A DNA stretch of 64,000 nucleotides. It comes from Chthoniobacteraceae bacterium. Its GTDB lineage: Bacteria; Verrucomicrobiota; Verrucomicrobiia; Chthoniobacterales; Chthoniobacteraceae. Positions 51,256 through 63,931 of this stretch are shown here, in pieces. Location of the stretch: contig JANNXQ010000194.1 in NCBI GenBank assembly GCA_031409655.1, forward strand, positions 1-64,000, in the 5' to 3' direction. Made by a program: the position numbers and the translations under genes. The first letter of the stretch is position 1; every line of letters begins with the position of its first letter. The notes beneath the pieces were generated by a model. That model was not told where the DNA came from. It searched no databases and saw only the letters and a list, made by a program, of their open reading frames with translations.

Positions 51256-52971
51256 TCAAAAGGACGGCGGCGCTGGAGCGGCACTCGCAGCTTTCGGCGA
51301 GACGGGCACCGCCCGCGCTTTGGCCAGGAGTTCATCGAGTTGCTGCGCGCGAGCGAGTGTCGGCTCATTGGCCCGCCGCCGCGCCGCACACGCGACCTGC
51401 ACCGGGCCGAGCGCGTCGGCGAGATCTTCGGAAAACGTCTCGATCGTCCTGCGCAAGTGTTCCTCGACCTCGATCACCAAGGCCTCGCGCCGCGTGGTCG
51501 CGAAGCGGCGGAAATCCGCGAGGATCCGCCATTGCCAGAGAAAGTGCGCGATGATCGCCAGGCCGGCGATAAACGCGGTGCCGGCCAAGACCCGGCCAAA
51601 GACGGGCAGCTCCGCGGCGGCGGAAAACGCCGTGAGCAGCACTCCGACGGCGATCGCAAATAGCGCCACCCGCAGCGTCGCGCCCGCGAGAAAGAAAAGC
51701 GCGTGCAGATGGCGATCCGTGCCCGCGTCGAGCGCGTGCCGCGCGAGCACCGACTGGAGATCGTCCCGCAAGTTCTGGCGGACGCCTTTGAAATCCGGCG
51801 GCTGCGGTCGCGGGCAATCCGCGATGGTCCGGCGGCGCTGCGTCTCGAGCTGCTCCCAGGCGAGCCGCTGCTCGGCTTCGATCGCCGCGAGCGTGGTGTC
51901 GGTCTCCGCCAGCACCGTTTCCCGCAAGGGTGTCTCCACGGTGTGCTCGAGATGCCCGCGCCACGCGCCTCCAGCGTTTAAGATCCCGGACAGCGAGAGG
52001 TGCGGACGGAAGATTTCCTCGCCGCGTTTCTGCGCGGTCTCGAGCGTCTTCGAGAGCGACCAAAGGATGCCGCCCATTTGCCGCAGCGATTGCTCTTTGC
52101 GGTCTTCGATCAACTCATGCATCCCGGCGAGCAGCTTCCCGTCACGCGTGGCGGATTGCACGGCCTCGCGCGAGACCCCGCTGATCTCCTTCAAGATTTC
52201 CCGAGCCCGGCCGCGCGCGAAGTCCACCGGCGCCCGGCGCGAGAGGCCCTCGGCGACTTCGCGGTCGATGTATTGCTCGAGCTTTTCGATCCCCGAGGCG
52301 GCGAGGGCGGTAGGTTCACCGACGATCCGCGCGGCGAGGGCACCGCGAGTGTCGATGGGGAAGATGGGACACGCCACGCCGGGACGTTTGAGCATCGCCT
52401 GCCGCAAGGTTTTCGCGGCTTCCTCGAGCGAGCCGCCGCCGCTCCCATCGGCGATCAGCACCACGCGCTTGAGTTGCGACGGCTCGAAGCGGGCGAGGAG
52501 TTTCCACGAGCGAGCCGCATCTGGCTGGGCAGCGGAGAAGACGAAAAGGAGGAGATCCGCCGCCGTCACATACGGCGCGAGTTCCGGCGTGATCTCGGAA
52601 CGCAGGCCGATGCCGGGCGTATCCACCAGCGTGAAGTCCCGCAGGAAAAGATGCGCGTGCTGACGCTCGATCACCCCGGGCCGCAACTCGGTCCGCTGCG
52701 CATCGGTGCCGTGCCGATAGACCGTGATTTTTTCCGTCGCCGCCGGAGCATCCGTGAAATCGCGTCCAAAGAGCGCATTCAAGAGCGAAGATTTTCCCGG
52801 CCGCCCGTCGCCCAGCGCGACGAAAAGGAACGGCTCACGCAGCCCATCTTGCAGCTCCTGCAATTCGGCGAGCGTCTCCGGCGCGGCTTGGCTCTCCTCC
52901 GCCAGACGGACGAGCGAGAAGAGCGCAGTGCCAACTTGCGCACGCAGCCGGATGTAGGCGTCGCCGAACAT
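51256..52971 (-). CDS. Dynamin-like GTPase with two TM helices
   Basis: EPFLFVALGDGRPGKSSLLNALFG, LVDTPG, helical stalk. Confidence 0.75.
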   Translation of the reverse strand: MFGDAYIRLRAQVGTALFSLVRLAEESQAAPETLAELQELQDGLREPFLFVALGDGRPGKSSLLNALFGRDFTDAPAATEKITVYRHGTDAQRTELRPGVIERQHAHLFLRDFTLVDTPGIGLRSEITPELAPYVTAADLLLFVFSAAQPDAARSWKLLARFEPSQLKRVVLIADGSGGGSLEEAAKTLRQAMLKRPGVACPIFPIDTRGALAARIVGEPTALAASGIEKLEQYIDREVAEGLSRRAPVDFARGRAREILKEISGVSREAVQSATRDGKLLAGMHELIEDRKEQSLRQMGGILWSLSKTLETAQKRGEEIFRPHLSLSGILNAGGAWRGHLEHTVETPLRETVLAETDTTLAAIEAEQRLAWEQLETQRRRTIADCPRPQPPDFKGVRQNLRDDLQSVLARHALDAGTDRHLHALFFLAGATLRVALFAIAVGVLLTAFSAAAELPVFGRVLAGTAFIAGLAIIAHFLWQWRILADFRRFATTRREALVIEVEEHLRRTIETFSEDLADALGPVQVACAARRRANEPTLARAQQLDELLAKARAVPVSPKAASAAPAPPSF

Positions 52972-54092: not shown

Positions 54093-55364
54093 TCACCCGA
54101 TCCGATCCATCCCGAAGGCCGCACGGAGCGGCTCTGGGATGAGCACGCTGCCATCCTCCTGCTGATAGGTCTCCAGCAGCGCCACGTAGAGCCGCGGCAG
54201 GGCGGTGCCCGAACCATTCAGGGTGTGGCAGAATTGATTTTTCCCGTCCTCGCCTTTGAAGCGCATCGCCATCCGGCGCGCTTGGAAGTCGCCGAAGTTT
54301 GAGCAGCTCGAGACTTCGAGATACGCATTCTGGCCGGGCGCCCAGACCTCGATGTCATAGGTCTTTGTCGCACCAAAGCCGAGGTCGCCGGTGCATAGCT
54401 CGATGACGCGATAGTGCAGCCCGAGGAGTTGCAGCACTTTCTCCGCATCGGCAGTCAGCGCGTCGAGTTCCGCGAAGCTGGTTTCCGGCGTCGTGATTTT
54501 CACGAGCTCCACTTTGTCGAACTGATGCGTGCGGATGAGCCCGCGCGTGCCGAGGCCGGCGGCGCCCGCTTCGCGCCGGAAGCACGGCGTGTAAGCGGTG
54601 TAGCGGATCGGGAGCTGCTCGAGCCGCAGGATTTCCTCGCGGTGCAAATTCGTCACCGGCACCTCGGCCGTCGGCACGAGGTAGAGATCGTCGTCTTTGC
54701 AGCGATACTGCTGCTCTTCAAATTTCGGGAGCTGCGTGGTGCCGACGAGCGACTCGGATTTCACGAGCAGTGGCGGGCTGACCTCGGCGTAGCCGTGTTC
54801 GCGGGTGTGCAGATCGAGGAGGAAATTGATGAGCGTCCGCAGGAGTCGCGCGCCGGCGCCGGTGTAGAGCGCAAAGGCGCTACCGGTGATCTTCGTCGCC
54901 CGCTCAAAGTCAAAGAGGCCGAGCTTTTCGCCCAGCTCGATGTGGCTCTTCGGCGCAAAGGTGAACGCCGGCTTTTCGCCCCAGGTCCGGAGCACTGGAT
55001 TATCCTCCGCCGACGTGCCCACCGGGCAGCCCTCATGCGGCAGATTTGGCACATTGAGCAAGAGCGTGCGCTGGCCGGCCTCGAGCTGCCGCGCCGCATC
55101 TTCGAGCACCGCGAGCTGCTCGCCGAACGAACGCACCTCGGCCTCAATCGCCGCCGTGTCCTCGCCCTTGCCCTTTTTTGCCCCGATCTCCTTGCTGATG
55201 CGTTTGCGATCCGCCTGGAGCTGCTGAAACTGCGTCTCCGCCGCGCGCCGCTTCGTGTCACAGGCGAGGATTTCATCGACCGCCGACGCCAGCTTCGGGT
55301 CCCGTGTGGCGAGACGCTGTTTCACGAGGTCGGGATTTTCGCGGATGAGCCGGATGTCAAGCAT
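54093..55364 (-). CDS. serS: Serine--tRNA ligase
   Basis: [43 protein letters not shown]. Confidence 0.98.
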
Positions 55365-55504
55365 GGGGCGGGGAGACTAGTGGCCGGGCGCACGCCGGGC
55401 AAGCAGAGCCATCAAGGCCGTCAATTTACCGACCAGCATACCCACCGCAGCGCTACCTATACCTCCCGTCATCCGCACCATCCAAGCCGATCAAGATACA
55501 TGGG

Positions 55505-56683
55505 TCACTTCACCACCTCGCTCTGCCGCAACGCGGCGCGGAATTGTTTGTAGAGCGCGTCGAGGCTGGGGCGGATTTGGTGGGTGCGTTGGGACCACTC
55601 CAGTTTCGGCTTGGCAGCCATCACGGCGGCGCTGTTGTTTGCCTGGCTCTTGAGTTCGGCGCGCTGGGATTCTTCGCGGGCAAATTGTGGCCAGCTCATC
55701 TTGTAGTTGCGCCGGGCTTCCAGCGCCTGGCTGGTCACGCCGGTGCGCGCCTGCGCCTCCACGGCGCGGAAACCGGCCCGCGCCAGCGTCCGGTCGCGTT
55801 CATCCAGCGCGGCGATCATCGTGTTGCAGAGTTGCTCGCCGATCTTGTAAGCCTCCGGGCTCGCCTTGGGTTTCTTCGCCGCCTCGTCCAGCAGGTCTTC
55901 GCGCAGGTAAGTCACATTCTGCCGGATGTCCGGCGGCACCCCCGCATCCAACGGCGCCAGCACTCACGCGCTCGCGTTCGGGGCCTGCTGCGAGAGGGTT
56001 TCGAGGAGGGGCTGGTTGGGATTAATAGGAACAGCGGACGGTGTTGACGGGTTCGCAGTGACCGACTGTTGCTGAGGCCCGATTTCCTTGATGCGGACGT
56101 TGCGGAACTGGACCGCTCCTTTCCAATGGCATTGAAAACCAACGTAACCGCGGGTGTTGCCACTCCCCGCGAATGTATTTACCAATTGGTCGTTGAGTCG
56201 CACCGAGTATTCTTGGCCGACGACGGTTATTTCGAGGTCATTCCAATCACCAAGGCGCTGCGGAACACTCGAAGGATCCTTTTTTCCGTAAATGGCGCCT
56301 GTCGGTCTATCGTCCGTCTGTTTCCCGTAGATCTGCACCTTGTAGCTACCGCGTTCGACAGCAACGGGATCGTTTTCCAACGCAGGAATGCGCAAGTATA
56401 TGCCTGATTTCGATGGCGCTTCACCATGCTTGAATTCGAGTTTGAGAACGAAGTCTGCAAATTCTTTTTTTCCATACCAATAAACTGCAGCAGGTTTATC
56501 AGGAGCGTATGTAGTCGCAATGCCACCGCTAATGTTCATGCCGCCGTTGCCACATTGCTTCCAACCGTCAGTGTGTTCTCGATCCAACAAAGGAATGAAC
56601 CCCGGCTCGACGGCACTCGAATCAGGGAGCAGCGCAGTGCAGCAAAGTGTGGCGAGGAGGAGATGGCGAACGATGGGTGTCAT
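55505..56683 (-). pseudogene. Secreted DUF1080 (3-keto-disaccharide hydrolase-like) protein with the shared C-terminal domain; in-frame TGA at 55964-55966
   Basis: Signal MTPIVRHLLL, FADFVLKLEFK, SGIYLR, TGAIY, GDWNDLEITV, GYVGFQCH, VQFRNVRIKE; ORFs 55964.. and 55505..55963 abut in the same frame. Confidence 0.8.
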
Positions 56684-56800
56684 GGGAGTTGGTAGTAAGG
56701 TCGAGCGCGTAACGGAATTCACACTTCTGGCGATGGCCCTCAAAACGGTGGTCAGGCCAACACCAATCTTCGATCCCCATCCGCCCTTGCGCTGAATGCA

Positions 56801-57022
56801 AACGCCAACGGCGTTCCATCTTCCAGCCCAGGGTTGCGAGGCACGAGCTACCCTGGGTTCCCATCCGCGCGCGGGGCCAACTCTGAAGGAGTTGCAGCCA
56901 GCACGGCGTACTGTGGCAGATGAAACCCTTTCAGGGTTTGCCGGGTTTGTCGGAGGGCACCCAGGGTAGGCGCTCGTGCCTCGCGCCAACCCTGGGCTGA
57001 TGGATGGAACGCCGTTGGCGTT
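56801..57022. repeat. Palindromic element family B (222 nt), copy 1
   Basis: aacgccaacggcgtt..agcccagggttgcgaggcacgagctaccctggg..aaccctttcagggtt..cccagggtaggcgctcgtgcctcgcgccaaccctgggct..aacgccgttggcgtt. Confidence 0.9.
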
Positions 57023-57084
57023 CACGGCCGGATCAACAATGGCAGACTGGAAGGAGTTCATGGGAATCGTTTGGCTTTGGGCGT

Positions 57085-58395
57085 TCACTTTGTCGGCGCG
57101 CCTTGCCGGAGGGCTTCGCGGAATTGGGCGTAGAGGGTGTCGAGGGTTTTGCGGAGGGTGGCGGTGCGCTGGGACCATTCGAGTTTGGGGCGTTCGGCCA
57201 TCACGTTGGCGCCGGCGATTGCCTGGCTCTTGAGTTCGGCGCGCTGGGATTCTTCGCGGGCAAATTGCGGCCAACTCATCTTGTTGTTGCGCCGGGCTTC
57301 CAGCGCCTGGCTGGTCACGCCGGTGCGCGCCTGCGCCTCCACGGCGCGGAAGCCGGCGCGGGCGAGGGTTTGGTTGCGTTCTTCGAGGGCGGCCAGGACG
57401 GTCTGGCAGAGCTGGGCGGCGAGGGTGTAGGCGGCGGCGCTGGCCTTGGGTTGCTGTTTGCCTTCGTCCAGCAAGTCCTCGCGGAGGAAGGTCAGGTTCT
57501 GCCGGATGTCGCCCGGCACCGCCTGCTCCAGCGGAGCCAGCGTCCACTCGATGGCATTCGGCGCCTGGTCTTTGAGGACTTCGATGCGGGGTTGGTTGGG
57601 GTCGGTTTGGATGGTGGTTGGACCGGCAGTCGATAATGATGCAGCGGTGGTAGCAGTCGAACTCTGCGTAATTCGCTCCATACGTGTTCCGGTTATTCGT
57701 TCTTTGCTGTCCCAGCTTTTGGCACCCACGAAGGACGAAAATGTCTGATCAAATGTTAGGACCGTCTTGAGTTTCTTGTTCGCGAACTCTTCGAGAGTGA
57801 CTTTGTTCGGCCCGGTGATTCGCGAAGCTGATGCGGCCGGCTCGCCATCCACCGTGATAACTGTGGCCATACCGTCGCTGAACCGGACTTCTTTCCACTT
57901 TGGCTTGTCGGGATTGCTCCATGACCATTTGTAGCCGAACAACGCCTCCTGCAAGGTCCGGGGATTCTGCGCGCAAGCCCGTTGCGTCGGACCAATAATC
58001 GCGAAGAGCGCCAGGAAAATAAAGTGACGGATGACTGATCCCGAGTCGGCACCGCAAATGAAGCGAACGCCAACGGCGTTGCATCGACCAGCCCAGGGTT
58101 GCGAGGCACGAGCTACCCTGGGTTTCCGTTCATGAAAGGAATCAACCCTGAAAGGGTTGCAGCCAAGGCGCTCCGAGTTGGTTGATGAAACCCTTTCAGG
58201 GTTTGCGGATGGTTTCGGAGCGGACCCAGGGTAGGCGCTCGTGCCTCGCGCCAACCCTGGGCTGGTCGATGGAACGCCGTTGGCGTTCGCTGCGCGTCTC
58301 GAACTCCCGTCGTTCGATGCGTTCCACGACTTCTCTTGGTCGGTTGCGTTGTCTGTATGCGCTGCGTTCTCAAAGGCGAATCGATACGGGTTCAT
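57085..58395 (-). CDS. Secreted protein: unknown beta-rich domain, T/S linker and the shared C-terminal domain
   Basis: Signal-like IRHFIFLALFAIIGPTQRACAQ downstream of an in-frame repeat; C-terminus [38 protein letters not shown]. Confidence 0.75.
   Translation of the reverse strand: MNPYRFAFENAAHTDNATDQEKSWNASNDGSSRRAANANGVPSTSPGLARGTSAYPGSAPKPSANPERVSSTNSERLGCNPFRVDSFHERKPRVARASQPWAGRCNAVGVRFICGADSGSVIRHFIFLALFAIIGPTQRACAQNPRTLQEALFGYKWSWSNPDKPKWKEVRFSDGMATVITVDGEPAASASRITGPNKVTLEEFANKKLKTVLTFDQTFSSFVGAKSWDSKERITGTRMERITQSSTATTAASLSTAGPTTIQTDPNQPRIEVLKDQAPNAIEWTLAPLEQAVPGDIRQNLTFLREDLLDEGKQQPKASAAAYTLAAQLCQTVLAALEERNQTLARAGFRAVEAQARTGVTSQALEARRNNKMSWPQFAREESQRAELKSQAIAGANVMAERPKLEWSQRTATLRKTLDTLYAQFREALRQGAPTK
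58066..58287. repeat. Palindromic element family B (222 nt), copy 2, in frame in a CDS
   Basis: Same arms and length as 56801-57022. Confidence 0.9.
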
Positions 58396-58417
58396 AGAAT
58401 GGTGTGGGTCGGAGTCC

Positions 58418-60286
58418 TTACTTTGATGCGGGATTTTGCCGCATTGCGGCGCGGAATTGGGCGTAGAGGTTGTCGAGGCCTTTGCTGAGCTGGCTGGTGC
58501 GCTGGGACCATTCGAGTTTCGGGCGTTCGGCCATGATGGCGGCGTTGTGGATGGCCTGGCTTTTGAGTTCGGCGCGCTGGGAAGTTTCGCGGGCGTATTG
58601 GGGCCAGCTCATCATGTAGTTGCGGCGGGCTTCGAGGGACTGGCTGGTGACGCCGGTGCGCGCCGCGGCCTTCACTCCGCGGAAGCCGGCGCGGGCTTGG
58701 GTCTGCGTGCGTTCGTCGAGGATGGCGAGGAGGTTTTGGCAGAGCTGCGCGCCGAGACGGTAGGCGTCGGCGCTGGCGGCGGGCTGACGCCGCGACTCAT
58801 CGGCGAGGTCTTCGCGCAGGAAGGTGAGGTTTTGGCGGATGTCGGCGGGGACGCTCTGGTCGAGTGGGGCGAGGACCCAGGCGGTGATGTTCGGGATCTG
58901 TCGGGAGAAGGTGGGGAGCAGGCTCGGCGCGGGGGCGGGGGTCGCGGGTGGCAGGATTGAGGGCGGAGCTGGGGCCTGGACGACGGGCATCGGCGCAACA
59001 AGCGGCGGGATCGGAGTCGGGGTGGCAGCCGGTGGCGGAGCTACGGGAGGAGCAGAAGTTTGGGTGACGCCAGGATTCGGGGCAGCAAGCGGGAGGAGCG
59101 GTGTCTGGGCGCTGGCGATGGTAACGGGCGTGGGCTTTGGCTCTGGACGCGGTTCCGGGGAGGTAGGAGTTGGTTGCAACAGTGTGCCGCTCTCCGCTTC
59201 AAAGTCCGGCGGTTCAACCATGCTCTTTTTCAAGAGGACGCCACCTTCAAATACGACAAGGAGCACAACCGCGGTGACGACGACGGTGATAACAATGGCA
59301 ATGCTTGGCGAGAGGCGCGGCGCCAAGGACGGGGTGCCGAGCGGCCCACCTTCGCCCCCGGATGTTTGGGGCACGACGGAGCGTGTCCCTCCTGGCGGGG
59401 TGTTGCGGATGCGGTCCACATCGGTCTTCATCTCGCTGACGCGCTGGTAGCGGCGGGCGGGCTCCTGCTGGAGCGCGCGCACGACGACTTCGTCGATGCG
59501 GGCATCGACGGGCACTTTCTCCGAGGGCAGCGCGAAGATGCCCTGCGGGCGCTGGCCGGTGAGCATTTCGTAGAGCATGACTCCGAGGGCGTAGATGTCG
59601 GCGCGCTGGTCGGCTTCGCCGGTGCGCTGCTCGGGGGCCATGTAGTCGGGCGTGCCCATGACCATCGCGGTCTGGGTGAGGCCGCCGGTGTGGCCGTGTG
59701 CGGGGCGGGCGAGGCCGAAGTCGGCGAGCTTGGCGCGGCCGTCCTTGGTGAGGAGGATATTGGCGGGCTTGATGTCGCGGTGGATGACGCCCTGGCTGTG
59801 GGCAAAAGCTAGGGCGTCGCAGATCTGGCCGGTGATGGCGAGGGCTTGCTTCGGATTGAGGCCGGGGCCGTGCAGGACGCGGCTGAGGTCGGTGCCGGCG
59901 ACGTATTCCATGACGAAGAAGAAGTGGCCTTCGCTGGTCTGGCCGAAGTCATAGACGGCGACGATGCCGGGATGCTGGAGCTGGGCGAGGGTGCGCGCTT
60001 CGCGTTGGAAGCGGGCGATGAAATCCTCGTCGGCGGCGATCTCGGCGGGGAGGAGCTTGATGGCGACGGGGCGATCGAGCGTGGACTGTCAGCCTTTGTA
60101 CACCGCGCCCATGCCGCCGTGGCCGAGCAGGCTCTCAATCCGGTATTGCGGGAGCAACGCAGCGAGCACGTCGGGCGCGGGCGGCGTCCAGGCGGCGGCG
60201 CCGACGGAGGGCTGCGCGGTGTTCAAGGCGCGGGCGAGGAGTTCGCCGGGGTCGAGGCCGTGGAGTTCGGGATCAGGGTCGGGCAT
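58418..60286 (-). pseudogene. Hanks-type Ser/Thr kinase with TM helix, Pro-rich linker and the shared C-terminal domain; in-frame TGA at 60089-60091
   Basis: [29 protein letters not shown] in a single frame; [23 protein letters not shown]. Confidence 0.88.
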
Positions 60287-60365
60287 GGCGCGGATTTGTT
60301 TCACCCATTGCTAGGGAATCCGGAGGCGGAGGTTGCAATTGAGCGCACATTTTTTCCGCGCCGGC

Positions 60366-61094
60366 TCAGACGCAGCCGAGCAGTTCGGCGAGTTCGCCTT
60401 TGATTTCCTCGGGCGAATCGTCGGCGATCGTGGCGGAGACCTGCTCGAAGATGATCTCGCGCCACCGCTTGCGGAGGCGAAAGACGTCACTTTTCACCGT
60501 GCCGAGCGGACGAGCGAGCGTGGCGGCGACTTCCTCGTAGCGCCGCTCCGCATCGGGGCCGAAGCCGAGGAACGGGCGCAGCGCGGTGAAGGTGTCCGCT
60601 TTTCCCTGCGCGCCGTATTCCGCGCCGAGGAGCGTGAGCGCGTGATCGAGGATGGTGAGCGCCCAGCGCCGCTGGAAGAGACGATCTGGCGAGAGGTCGT
60701 CGCGCGGCTCGGCGGCATACCGCTGCTCGGCCTGCGCGGAATCGAAGCTCGTGAGCACGGCGGCACCGCGCTTTTGCGCCATGGCGCGATCATGCTCGTC
60801 GCTGAGAAATCGGCGCGCGCAGGTGAGCAGGAAGGTGCGCAGTTTGCCCTTGCCGGCATCGGCCTTGGCGAGCGTCTGCTTTTCGAGTAGCCACGCGAAG
60901 AAGCCCTGCGTGAGATCTTCAGCATCGTGCGGCGCGCGGCCCGACCGCCGGATGTAGGCGTAGATCGGATACCAGTACGCTTCGCACAGCGCGGTGAGCG
61001 CGGTCATCGCCGCGGTGTCGTCGGCGCCGATGGCCCGCTGCACGAGGCTCCATCGCGTGGTCTGGAAGGAATGCGGAGCGGGAGGCGGGGGCAT
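60366..61094 (-). CDS. ECF sigma factor of the Ser/Thr-kinase-associated type
   Basis: FQTTRWSLV, LCEAYWYPIYAYIRR, DAEDLTQGFF, GKLRTFLL, TVKSDVFRLR; directly upstream of the kinase, no anti-sigma gene. Confidence 0.92.
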   Translation of the reverse strand: MPPPPAPHSFQTTRWSLVQRAIGADDTAAMTALTALCEAYWYPIYAYIRRSGRAPHDAEDLTQGFFAWLLEKQTLAKADAGKGKLRTFLLTCARRFLSDEHDRAMAQKRGAAVLTSFDSAQAEQRYAAEPRDDLSPDRLFQRRWALTILDHALTLLGAEYGAQGKADTFTALRPFLGFGPDAERRYEEVAATLARPLGTVKSDVFRLRKRWREIIFEQVSATIADDSPEEIKGELAELLGCV

Positions 61095-61207
61095 TTGGGT
61101 AACGCGGGGAGTTCCGATGTACGCGAAGCGTGGGGAGTATGGATCGGGAAAGCGAGCCCCGGATTGGAGCTTGGAGTCTCCGCAGTCGGTTCGTGTAGGG
61201 TTGCTGG

Positions 61208-62182
61208 ATGCCGCAGCCTTCCACTTCCCGCCCGAAGATCGTCGTCCTCGATGGCTACACGCTGAACCCCGGGGATCTCGACTGGCGCGGGCTGGAGGCG
61301 ATCGGCGAGGTCACGGTGCATGAGCGCACGCCGCTGGAGACCACGGTCGCGCGGGCGGCGGGGGCGGCCATCGTGCTGACGAACAAGGCGCCCGTGAATG
61401 CCGAGGCCATCGCAGCACTTCCCGACCTGCGCTACATCGGCGTGCTCGCGACGGGGTACAATGTCGTGGATGGCGCGGCGGCGAAGGCGCGCGGGATCGT
61501 GGTCGCCAATGTGCCGGGCTACGGCACGCCGGCCGTGGCGCAGCACGTCTTTGCACTCATCCTGGAGCTGGCGCAGCGGGCGGGGCATCACGCGGAAACG
61601 GTGCGCGCCGGGCGCTGGGTGGCGAGTGCGGACTTTTGCTACTGGGACTTCCCGCTGGTGGAGCTGGCGGGACGGACGCTCGGGATCGTGGGCTTCGGGG
61701 CGATCGGCCAGGCCGTGGCGCGGATCGGGCTGGCCTTTGGGATGAAAGTGATCGCCAGCACCCGCACGCCGCGGACGGTGGAGGGCGTGGAATTCATCTC
61801 GATGGACGAGGTCTTCCGCCGGGCCGATGTGGTGACTTTACACTGCCCGCTCACGCCGGAGACGCAGGGCCTCGTGAATGCCGCCCGGCTCGCGCAAATG
61901 AAGCCGGGGGCTTTCCTGATAAACACGGGCCGCGGCCCGCTCGTGGTCGAGTGCGATCTCGCGGCAGCGCTCGAGGCCGGGCGCATCGCGGGTGCCGGGC
62001 TGGACGTGCTTTCCGTCGAGCCGCCGCAGGCCGACAATCCGCTCCTGACGGCCAGGAATTGTCTCATCACCCCGCACATCGCCTGGGCCATGCAGGCCGC
62101 GCGGGCGCGGCTCATGGAGATCGCGGTGGCGAATGTGCGGGCCTTCCTGGCAGGCACCCCGGTCCATGTGGTCAATGGGTGA
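61208..62182 (+). CDS. D-2-hydroxyacid dehydrogenase (glycerate dehydrogenase-like)
   Basis: LDGYTLNPGDL, GFGAIG, LHCPLT, INTGRG, LDVL..EP, TPHIAW. Confidence 0.93.
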   Translation: MPQPSTSRPKIVVLDGYTLNPGDLDWRGLEAIGEVTVHERTPLETTVARAAGAAIVLTNKAPVNAEAIAALPDLRYIGVLATGYNVVDGAAAKARGIVVANVPGYGTPAVAQHVFALILELAQRAGHHAETVRAGRWVASADFCYWDFPLVELAGRTLGIVGFGAIGQAVARIGLAFGMKVIASTRTPRTVEGVEFISMDEVFRRADVVTLHCPLTPETQGLVNAARLAQMKPGAFLINTGRGPLVVECDLAAALEAGRIAGAGLDVLSVEPPQADNPLLTARNCLITPHIAWAMQAARARLMEIAVANVRAFLAGTPVHVVNG

Positions 62183-62317
62183 CTTGGAGCCGGTGGCACG
62201 CGATTCGCTAGCCCCGCTGAAAAAATATCGGGCATTCGGCATCGTCGAGGCTACCTTGTGCTGCCAAATCAACAGCGCTGCCTCCCCAGCGGCAGCGCCA
62301 AACCAAAAACCCGGTCT

Positions 62318-63160
62318 ATGATTCGCAAGAGACTTCTCCGCTCGTCGGCGATCCTCGCTTGTACCATCGCTAGCGTCGCCTCCCCAGACACCGCCCGCTC
62401 CCAGTCCGAACTCGCCTCCATCTCGTATGGCGATATGCGGACGTTGCGGCTGGATGTGGGCCGCTACCCTTGGAAGCGCGCAATCGTGACGACGACATTC
62501 TGGGTGGGCGAGGAGCCGACGGCGAACAACCCGATGCCGAATCACTTCAGCGCCTGGGATAAAAACTGGCGCCGGAACTACGGCGGCACCGACCACCCGT
62601 CGGAGCGCGCGAATCTTCTCCCCGCGAAATTCACCCCGAAGCAAAACCCTTTCTACATCGCGCTGCCATATAACGATTGCACCATCGAAGGCTACAAACC
62701 GGAGGCTGCGAGCGTGATCCCCTGGTTCAAGGATGGACCGCTGGCGGGCTCGAAACGGTCCGTGCTCAAGGGCCGCTGGGTGGCCATCCGCAGTCGGCAT
62801 CGCGTGGCCTATGCGCAGTGGGAAGATGCAGGCCCTTTCCGCACGGATCACTGGCAGTACGTTTTTGGAAATGAACGCCCGAAGCCGAACCTGAACAAAG
62901 GCGCCGGCCTCGATATCTCGCCCGCGGTGCGCGATTTCCTCGGCGTCGGCGATACTTCCGTGACCGATTGGCGATTCGTGGATTTCGCGGACGTGCCGCC
63001 CGGACCGTGGTCGGATCACGGGGACAACAACACCTTCGTGCAGCAGAAACGCGGCAGCGCCAACGCGCGCAATCACCTCACGGTGCTGGCGGAAAGGTAT
63101 CTCCCGGTGATCATGGATTTGGGACGCGGCGGGCTGCCGTTGGGTTCCGGCGGGCAGTGA
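62318..63160 (+). CDS. Secreted hypothetical protein (possible DPBB/RlpA-like fold)
   Basis: Signal peptide; TTFWVGE, NPFYIALPYND, YAQWEDAGP, AGLDISPAV. Confidence 0.65.
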   Translation: MIRKRLLRSSAILACTIASVASPDTARSQSELASISYGDMRTLRLDVGRYPWKRAIVTTTFWVGEEPTANNPMPNHFSAWDKNWRRNYGGTDHPSERANLLPAKFTPKQNPFYIALPYNDCTIEGYKPEAASVIPWFKDGPLAGSKRSVLKGRWVAIRSRHRVAYAQWEDAGPFRTDHWQYVFGNERPKPNLNKGAGLDISPAVRDFLGVGDTSVTDWRFVDFADVPPGPWSDHGDNNTFVQQKRGSANARNHLTVLAERYLPVIMDLGRGGLPLGSGGQ

Positions 63161-63931
63161 ATGCGGATGCGCTTCTTGTTCCCCGCAGCATTGCTGCTCG
63201 CGCTCCGCGGAGCTTCCGCTGCGGAGCCGCAGACTGCTGAAAGCCTTGGCTTCCGGCTCGTCTGGTCGGAGGAATTCACCGGCCTCACGCTCGACGCCAC
63301 CCGCTGGAGTCCCGCCTTCGCGCCAGGCGTGCATCCGCTGGGCTGCAATGGGGAGCGGCAAAGTTACGCGCCTGAGAGTGCCTTCATCCGGGATGGTCTG
63401 CTCGTCCTCCGAGCGGAGCGAAAGGCGCGGGAAGGTGTGCCTTTCACGAGCGGGATGGTGGCGTCGCACGGGAAATTTAGCCAGCGCTACGGGTGCTTCG
63501 AGGCGCGGGTGAAATTGCCGCGAGGGCGCGGGCTGTGGCCGGCGTTTTGGCTGCTGCCGGAGAACCGTGTGTGGCCGCCGGAGATCGACATCATGGAGCA
63601 CAAGGGCCGGCTGCCCAACCACGTCTGGCTCACGCTCCACCTGCCGCAAGCTGGCACCTGGCAACCGAAGTCCGACTCGAAGGAATGGATCGGCCCTGAT
63701 TTCACCGCCGACTTTCACACCTTTGCCGTCGAGTGGCGGCCCGGCAAGATGCGCTGGTTTGTGGATGGCGTGGAACGTCACGCCTTCCTCCACCCCACGC
63801 CGGATCTGCCGATGTACCTCATCCTGAATCTCGCCGTGGGCGGACACTTCGATGGCGACCCGGACGCAGCGACGCCCTTCCCGAGCGAGATGCTGGTCGA
63901 TTGGGTGCGCGTTTACACGCCCGCCAAGTAG
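63161..63931 (+). CDS. Glycoside hydrolase family 16
   Basis: LVWSEEF, GLWPAFWLL, EIDIME catalytic motif, FHTFAVEW, ILNLAVGG. Confidence 0.93.
   Translation: MRMRFLFPAALLLALRGASAAEPQTAESLGFRLVWSEEFTGLTLDATRWSPAFAPGVHPLGCNGERQSYAPESAFIRDGLLVLRAERKAREGVPFTSGMVASHGKFSQRYGCFEARVKLPRGRGLWPAFWLLPENRVWPPEIDIMEHKGRLPNHVWLTLHLPQAGTWQPKSDSKEWIGPDFTADFHTFAVEWRPGKMRWFVDGVERHAFLHPTPDLPMYLILNLAVGGHFDGDPDAATPFPSEMLVDWVRVYTPAK

Follow-up and report, generated by a model that had tools for sequence, protein, structure and literature searches.

We analyzed a 64,000-nucleotide stretch of DNA from a Chthoniobacteraceae bacterium (the window; positions 1 to 64,000 of contig JANNXQ010000194.1, assembly GCA_031409655.1), whose minus strand at 55505-61094 carries an extracytoplasmic function (ECF) sigma factor gene, a single-pass Ser/Thr kinase gene, and two further genes, all co-oriented. 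The ectodomain of the kinase is a predicted helical domain of ~170 amino acids (aa), and the same domain is encoded behind a different N-terminal module in each of the two downstream genes. The layout of a sigma factor, a domain-bearing kinase, and a series of module-plus-domain genes recurs in Chthoniobacteraceae and Prosthecobacter with 1 to 7 partners (seven in L032; L numbers denote the loci surveyed). We regard the domain family and the architecture as new on a known ECF-kinase chassis, and docking of the partners on the kinase through the shared domain as the leading candidate mechanism. The nearest named relatives of the locus are Chthoniobacteraceae (Verrucomicrobiota), and it is flanked by serS on one side and a 2-hydroxyacid dehydrogenase gene on the other. 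Its features are as follows.

60366..61094, minus strand: ECF sigma factor gene (Sigma70_r2 match; FxTTxW N-terminus; DAED kept)
60312..60337, minus strand: putative ECF promoter of the kinase, from comparison only (-35 TGCAAC, 16-nt spacer, -10 CCTA)
58418..60286, minus strand: Hanks-type Ser/Thr kinase gene (Pkinase, E 1.8e-49) with kinase domain, transmembrane (TM) segment, Pro-rich linker, and shared domain; TGA-interrupted
60089..60091, minus strand: in-frame TGA at kinase codon 66, past the glycine loop and ahead of the catalytic lysine; a sense codon in relatives
about 59249-59302, minus strand: single predicted TM segment of the kinase
58421..58933, minus strand: shared domain copy 1 (kinase ectodomain)
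57085..58395, minus strand: partner gene 1, with element-encoded leader, signal-like segment, ~100-aa predicted beta-barrel module, and shared domain
58062..58293, no strand assigned: palindromic element of REP (repetitive extragenic palindromic) doublet type with 40-nt arms, copy 1, lying in frame after the ATG of partner gene 1 and ahead of its signal-like segment
about 57664-57969, minus strand: predicted beta-barrel module of partner gene 1
57088..57600, minus strand: shared domain copy 2 (the modelled copy)
56798..57028, no strand assigned: palindromic element, copy 2, upstream of partner gene 2
55505..56683, minus strand: partner gene 2, with signal peptide, DUF1080, linker, and shared domain cut off by TGA
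about 56087-56602, minus strand: DUF1080 module of partner gene 2 (Pfam PF06439, E 1.5e-27)
55964..55966, minus strand: in-frame TGA in the DUF1080 gene, at a shared-domain Trp found in all 102 relatives aligned
55508..56017, minus strand: shared domain copy 3 (interrupted)

The three window copies of the shared domain are 67-74% identical, and no fourth copy was found elsewhere in the 6.85-Mb source assembly, even with a broad profile. The original prediction had proposed a helical domain of ~150 aa; the helical character agrees with the model, and the domain starts about 18 residues earlier. No match was detected in Pfam or NCBIfam (E 0.1; 4HB_MCP, CHASE3, NarQ, and TorS-type sensor families included) or among PDB sequences (E 10), and the ESM Atlas gave no usable one. 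The AlphaFold2 model of copy 2 consists of four main helices (predicted local distance difference test score, pLDDT, 88), for which Foldseek returned no match at E 0.001. Structural comparison of this model reached a best Z of 10.6, with four-helix sensors at 8.2 to 9.6 (TorS, Z 9.6, root mean square deviation [rmsd] 9.2, 160 aligned; HK9, Z 9.2, rmsd 2.9, 115 aligned; NarQ, Z 8.6) and unrelated bundles tied, a range that the comparison tool calls common for helical bundles. The domain is thus a predicted four-helix bundle whose model matches generic helical bundles and singles out no known fold. The suggested novelty check accordingly yielded no known enzyme or binding family in the Pfam, NCBIfam, PDB, and Foldseek comparisons.

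Relatives of the domain number 252 at E 0.001 among 50%-identity representatives. In a set of 281 proteins, the domain is C-terminal in 163, N-terminal in 49, internal in 7, and carried by kinases in 24, the remaining 38 being short or fragments; two copies never occur in one protein (0/281 proteins and 0/124 locus open reading frames [ORFs]). The families co-carried among the 120 matches listed are DUF1080 (48), FGE-sulfatase (6), ThuA (3), fucosidase (2), and LRR (2), with one each of C-type lectin, GH16, and PF14100. The alignment retains conserved Trp, Arg, and Tyr residues and one Cys, which lies at residue 65 of modelled copy 2 and is invariant in 102 close relatives and present in 94% of 117 copies when remote ones are included. 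Exactly one Cys is found in 87 of the 117 copies, so an inter-chain disulfide is possible. A remote subfamily (L015 8835-9551 and P0289-P0325; ~23% identity) combines a signal peptide, the domain, and a small C-terminal module with a weak SH3 lead; the L015 protein otherwise matches only unnamed ESM Atlas clusters, under 0.9. At L077 1-1380, the domain stands in frame before a partial GT4 glycosyltransferase on a possibly chimeric contig.

The original prediction had described a co-oriented ECF sigma factor and membrane kinase, which the Sigma70_r2 match and the Hanks kinase with one predicted TM segment confirm, together with two signal-peptide proteins and three proteins that end in one domain. 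Both downstream genes do possess signal-type segments, and the three domain copies are present where they had been placed; however, the 5′ end of the middle gene is disrupted by the palindromic element, and the DUF1080 protein does not really end in the shared domain, given the TGA at an invariant Trp. Three intact proteins are therefore not encoded in this strain, although intact forms are found in relatives. With the TGA of the kinase read through, the glycine loop, the VAIK lysine, HRDxKxxN, DFG, and APE are all present; its site is a Trp codon in one intact relative, and uninterrupted kinase frames occur in relatives and not in this strain. An assembly error is unlikely as the cause of both TGAs, whose sites are covered by contigs of two runs (X1 and X2, from one study that is possibly the assembly's own source) without an alternative letter. 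Recoding of TGA as Trp was rejected because TGA is the commonest stop in this code 11 genome (terminating 527 of 1,033 long genes), one tRNA-Trp(CCA) is encoded, and nonsense codons of all three types occur. A genome screen for nonsense codons spanned by paralogs recovered 27 among 562 candidate junctions, scattered and of all three stop types; it detected the kinase TGA and missed that of the DUF1080 gene. Conserved readthrough was likewise rejected, since both sites are sense codons in relatives; low-level leakage may occur. With two nonsense codons and one disrupted 5′ end, the system is probably dead in this genome. Decay is frequent among the loci examined (window, L020, L066, L014, L184, and L185). 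The window copy is probably decaying, and the system has to be judged from its relatives.

The kinase-partner relationship was surveyed in a hand-picked set comprising the window and 68 of 188 loci. Among 25 domain-bearing kinases in this set, 22 are accompanied by a partner gene in the locus, two lie at a contig edge, and one remote kinase has no partner in 14 kb; the kinase of L174, a half-domain variant, has no partner in 16 kb. A kinase is present in 15/29 genome loci and 9/44 metagenome loci that carry the shared domain. In loci of at least 10 kb, these proportions rise to 13/22 and 6/14, compared with 6.6% at random positions of the source genome, where the locus counts include a few duplicates and the background derives from the source genome only. 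The enrichment beside ECF-kinase pairs that the original prediction had called for is thereby observed. The partners, which bear signal peptides, contribute DUF1080, FGE-sulfatase-like, LRR, lectin, glycosidase, and small beta-barrel modules as their other halves, and some kinases (L034, L171, and L174) carry partner-type modules in cis together with the shared domain. The source genome itself contains 33 kinase-like ORFs and 19 sigma-like matches of this type, many of them paired, and only the window kinase bears the domain.

Where the kinase copy of the domain is an outlier, the partner copies match it. The kinase domains of L171 and L178 are 66-67% identical to that of the window, and their sigma factors are close to the window's, whereas their shared domains are only 19-20% identical to the window's. 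All four partners in these loci are nonetheless 69-74% identical to the shared domain of their own kinase, with a median of 19% to other partners. Comparable kinase-partner identities occur at L078 (86%) and L034 (75-76%), and between L123 and L124 (71%), which lie on separate contigs of one genome, where the other partner (L033) reaches 37%. Across such outliers, whose kinase copies are 19-45% identical to the window's, partners match their kinases at 69-86%. A second receptor class extends this pattern: L173 (155-3309) encodes a BlaI-type repressor (Penicillinase_R) and a BlaR1-type M56 receptor (Peptidase_M56) instead of sigma factor and kinase. The C-terminal part of this receptor comprises two beta modules and, last, the shared domain; directly behind it comes a secreted beta-module gene that is truncated where the contig stops. 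Its domain copy is 62-65% identical to two partner copies of that genome and at most 35% identical to all others.

The motif GCAAY-N16/17-CGAAH precedes 29/50 domain genes, kinases included, and 5/122 other genes in 17 Prosthecobacter-type loci, counts in which the upstream windows were delimited in differing ways and the copies are related by descent; four of the five other genes are co-oriented array neighbors. Across five whole genomes, a stricter form of the motif gave 8-14 matches, including 2-3 in arrays, against 1-5 for a reversed control. The Prosthecobacter motif is absent from the window locus, where the kinase has the same -35 and a different -10; inspection by eye places TGCAACC at this position in 6/7 window-type kinases, and the window-type motif is not enriched genome-wide in the source genome. 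Since motif-bearing genomes hold 5-33 related sigma factors, we infer the assignment of the promoter to the adjacent sigma factor. The ECF-type promoter common to kinase and cassettes makes the partners look like outputs of the sigma factor as well as possible inputs.

The locus contains no anti-sigma gene, and an ECF gene adjoins a membrane Hanks kinase, a gene context like that of ECF43. Region 2.2 of the window sigma factor reads HDAEDLTQ, i.e., DAED is retained, and none of 15 aligned sigma relatives has an S/T motif in its place, the acidic residues being mostly kept. It is therefore not of the proven, phosphorylation-activated ECF43 type; two Thr residues invariant in the alignment (13 and 222) are candidate phosphosites only.

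Our tentative preference, held just short of an evenly balanced belief, is that the shared domain pairs with itself and docks the secreted partners on the receptor as plug-in sensors or modulators. On the kinase, the domain is located outside the TM segment; its other carriers are signal-peptide proteins, and each chain holds a single copy. Domain-domain contact would keep a partner on the kinase, and a ligand of its module (probably glycans or their breakdown products) would cluster or free the kinase ectodomains and so switch the kinase. From the gene order and the lack of an anti-sigma gene, the kinase would then activate the sigma factor, probably by phosphorylation at a site other than that used in ECF43, and the sigma factor, as the promoter motif suggests, may transcribe kinase and cassettes in a feedback loop. 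The array would grow, shrink, and swap modules through duplication and recombination. Docking is suggested by the single copy per chain, by modules that occur fused or in trans, by the subtype matching, and by reuse of the domain in a second receptor class. It is possible, if rather doubtful as a generalization, that such loci form a plug-in receptor in which a homotypic docking domain with locus-private subtypes couples an expandable sensor array to unrelated transducers, the regulator transcribes its own array, and the cell changes what it senses by cassette swap.

Several observations weigh against docking. In a quick tree, the majority of the domain-bearing kinases fall into a single clade; there are two more lineages, and the remote L160 kinase stands apart from the tree, so the 22 loci represent about three or four independent origins. 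In the Prosthecobacter type, the largest clade, kinase copies share 39-57% identity with the partners of their own locus, no more than with foreign ones, and the matching of copies elsewhere could come from local duplication or gene conversion alone. The BlaR1 case is known from one fragmented assembly (82% complete, 6% contamination). No kinase is present in 9/22 genome and 8/14 metagenome loci of at least 10 kb, several assemblies of varying completeness have secreted copies only, and kinases without the shared domain also neighbor domain-bearing secreted genes (L036, L169, L172, L181, and L188). Some remote solo proteins have nothing but the domain behind a signal or anchor (L138, L143, L158, and L164), with a small C-terminal module added in L015, and no kinase occurs in the 9.5-19 kb read around them (about 9 kb for L015). 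Receptor-free and solo copies indicate that the shared domain has a life outside sigma/kinase operons. The modular receptor with interchangeable sensors that had been predicted therefore gains from the subtype matching, the single copy per chain, and the second receptor class, and loses from the kinase-free loci, the solo and N-terminal copies, and the output-like partners.

In a somewhat unlikely alternative without docking, the domain itself binds a ligand or envelope component, the receptor senses that target, and the sigma factor induces secreted enzymes and binders for it, in a manner similar to PASTA. The predicted fold resembles the four-helix sensor domains of histidine kinases and chemoreceptors, although the Z scores are common for helical bundles; Trp, Arg, Tyr, and Cys residues are conserved, kinase and cassettes share an ECF-type promoter that makes partners look like outputs, partners and solo copies exist without receptors, and the domain is placed variously at the N-terminus, at the C-terminus, or internally. 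Tandem repeats are frequent in ligand-binding modules, whereas the shared domain never has them, and subtypes only 19-20% identical occur with one and the same operon layout and set of partner modules, for which a private pairing code is a better fit than one conserved ligand.

It is improbable that the domain serves as a general tag for self-assembly, bringing secreted modules together in a periplasmic or surface complex, and was later adopted by receptors as a gauge or anchor while partners act mainly as effectors. The single copy per chain, receptor-free arrays of two or three partners (L060, L061, and L069), and the solo copies agree with it. So does a quick tree of 105 copies of at least 150 bits (without six duplicate loci and the short views L001-L012), in which kinase copies occupy several places and some are nested among secreted ones (L034 and L075/L078). 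It is at odds with the tie of the array to sigma factor and kinase in about half of the long loci. A mobile domain shuffled without functional link among fast-evolving secreted genes and kinase ectodomains, its matching due to local duplication, is very improbable: the patchy spread (32/151 genomes of the family, many by remote matches, 9/401 of the class, and 0/3 others of the genus), the frequent decay, and the REP elements and toxin-antitoxin pairs within arrays would fit, whereas the same layout with two unrelated receptor classes, the stable clades of kinases with the domain as their only ectodomain, and promoter boxes kept while spacers vary would not. With a narrow profile, 2/401 genomes of a phylum sample had the domain, and one complete genome retains only a headless relic of a shared-domain gene.

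The modules in front of the domain differ from it in composition, with a GC content of 53% and 51% against 66-68% in the shared-domain copies, as the original prediction had noted. It had also identified one module as DUF1080, which the PF06439 match substantiates (97 bits against a cut-off of 26.8; 3-keto-glycoside lyase/hydratase fold), with weak PDB sequence matches to 3h3l, 3s5q, and 3imm. DUF1080 enzymes act on 3-keto-glycosides according to the available parts of two reports (10.1101/2024.03.25.586180, PMC9007349). The other module, proposed to be an unfamiliar beta domain, has no Pfam match and is indeed a predicted beta-barrel, similar to small 8-stranded barrels of lipocalin/streptavidin-like type (Z up to 9.8, rmsd 3.1, 94 aligned, from the predicted structure); no family is assignable from fold comparison. 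This ~100-aa module recurs in relatives and does repeat in tandem.

One copy of the ~230-nt palindromic element stands ahead of each partner gene. The source genome has 24 sites, 10 of them near full length (inverted repeat z, -16.9), and 13 PF01797 matches. Pieces of the element flank Y1 transposase (PF01797) genes on C102 (1547-2426) and C86 (325-1067) and adjoin one on C185 (4063-4543), and these transposases are likely the mobilizers of the element, which we take to be a REP doublet with a transposase of RAYT (REP-associated tyrosine transposase) type. In partner gene 1, no ATG, GTG, or TTG occurs between the element and the signal-like segment, and the nearest in-frame ATG is 120 codons upstream. 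The element lies in one open frame from an upstream ATG to the partner coding sequence in 4/4 cases, with differing junction lengths (window 58062-58293 and 56798-57028; L017 9317-9542; L020 8972-9204), and translation could turn it into an insert of ~75 residues; the three middle-gene cases among these have a common origin. The close relatives L017 and L020 carry different modules on a 93% identical shared-domain copy.

Orphan-swap logic like that of rhs or contact-dependent inhibition (CDI) systems was rejected by reasoning, as the constant part is 3′ and recombination cannot place a module on the kinase. Integron-like cassettes were also rejected: no attC-like repeat was seen among the listed 300-nt stretches after domain genes, and the recurring sequence is the promoter motif. 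Rfam gave no match in window 55300-61400. Toxin-antitoxin pairs (ParE, PIN, and antitoxin-like ORFs) lie between domain cassettes at L018 2999-3577, L049 8628-8855, L023 8953-9180, and L061 4411-9813; in L061, three genes joining FGE-sulfatase and the domain alternate with such pairs. Elsewhere in the window, the minus strand at 51256-52971 encodes a dynamin-like GTPase of 571 aa (Dynamin_N, MMR_HSR1), for which a membrane segment is predicted, and on the plus strand at 62258-63931 a 300-aa protein that matches nothing in Pfam precedes a secreted GH16 glycoside hydrolase.

What many membrane Ser/Thr kinases and anti-sigma-less ECFs of Verrucomicrobia and Planctomycetes sense is a largely open question. 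These loci supply a receptor, candidate sensors, a candidate promoter, and naturally diverged cognate and non-cognate pairs, and thus make that question directly testable. Same-domain adaptors are known mainly from eukaryotic and cytoplasmic signaling; if docking is true, an extracytoplasmic one would be reused by two receptor classes, and its orthogonal subtypes would form a ready kit for modular biosensors. Even as a mere binding module, the domain represents a new family that comprises 252 clusters at 50% identity and has a defined regulon.

The system shares traits with several known ones. In TorS-TorT, LytS-XylFII, PknG-GlnX-GlnH, and QseE-QseG, as far as the available descriptions go, sensing is likewise outsourced to a separate periplasmic protein, and TorS and LytS have four-helix sensor domains (by PDB titles), as predicted for the shared domain. 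Such receptor pairs are known as heterotypic, with one fixed partner each, whereas here the receptor and many partners bear the same domain. PASTA, in the portions of its literature at hand, is one extracytoplasmic domain common to a Hanks kinase and envelope enzymes (penicillin-binding proteins). PASTA is a small alpha/beta repeat that occurs in tandem, while the shared domain is all-helical and single-copy, and its carriers are co-located in arrays. L173 resembles BlaI/BlaR1 in its Penicillinase_R and Peptidase_M56 genes and differs at its sensor end, where a pair of beta modules plus the shared domain takes the place of a penicillin-binding domain.

The closest chassis are kinase-associated ECFs. 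The ECF43 pairs EcfP-PknT and EcfK-PknS also combine an ECF with an adjacent Hanks kinase that spans the membrane once and has its C-terminus in the periplasm, and they lack an anti-sigma factor; an S/T motif replaces DAED in ECF43, whereas the window sigma factor keeps it, PknS has a tetratricopeptide repeat (TPR) ectodomain, and no secreted array sharing the ectodomain is described in the accessible sections of these reports (PMC8999054, PMC13147305). ECF59, 61, 62, and 217 of the Planctomycetes-Verrucomicrobia-Chlamydiae (PVC) bacteria similarly have a kinase at +1 and no anti-sigma factor but, compared by description only and from the accessible text, are 100% Planctomycetes with WD40 and other ectodomains (PMC7826278). 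DUF1080 and FGE-sulfatase (sulfatase-modifying) domains are typical fused periplasmic domains of PVC single-pass kinases in the available part of another report (PMC11032199), whereas here most such modules come on secreted chains of their own, to which the domain that forms the kinase ectodomain is attached. A literature search, mostly without subscription papers, found no match for the domain, the arrays, the subtype matching, or the BlaR1 version. The ECF-kinase chassis, accessory periplasmic sensors, and domains common to kinases and enzymes are already known, and it is on this chassis that the new domain family and its architecture are set.

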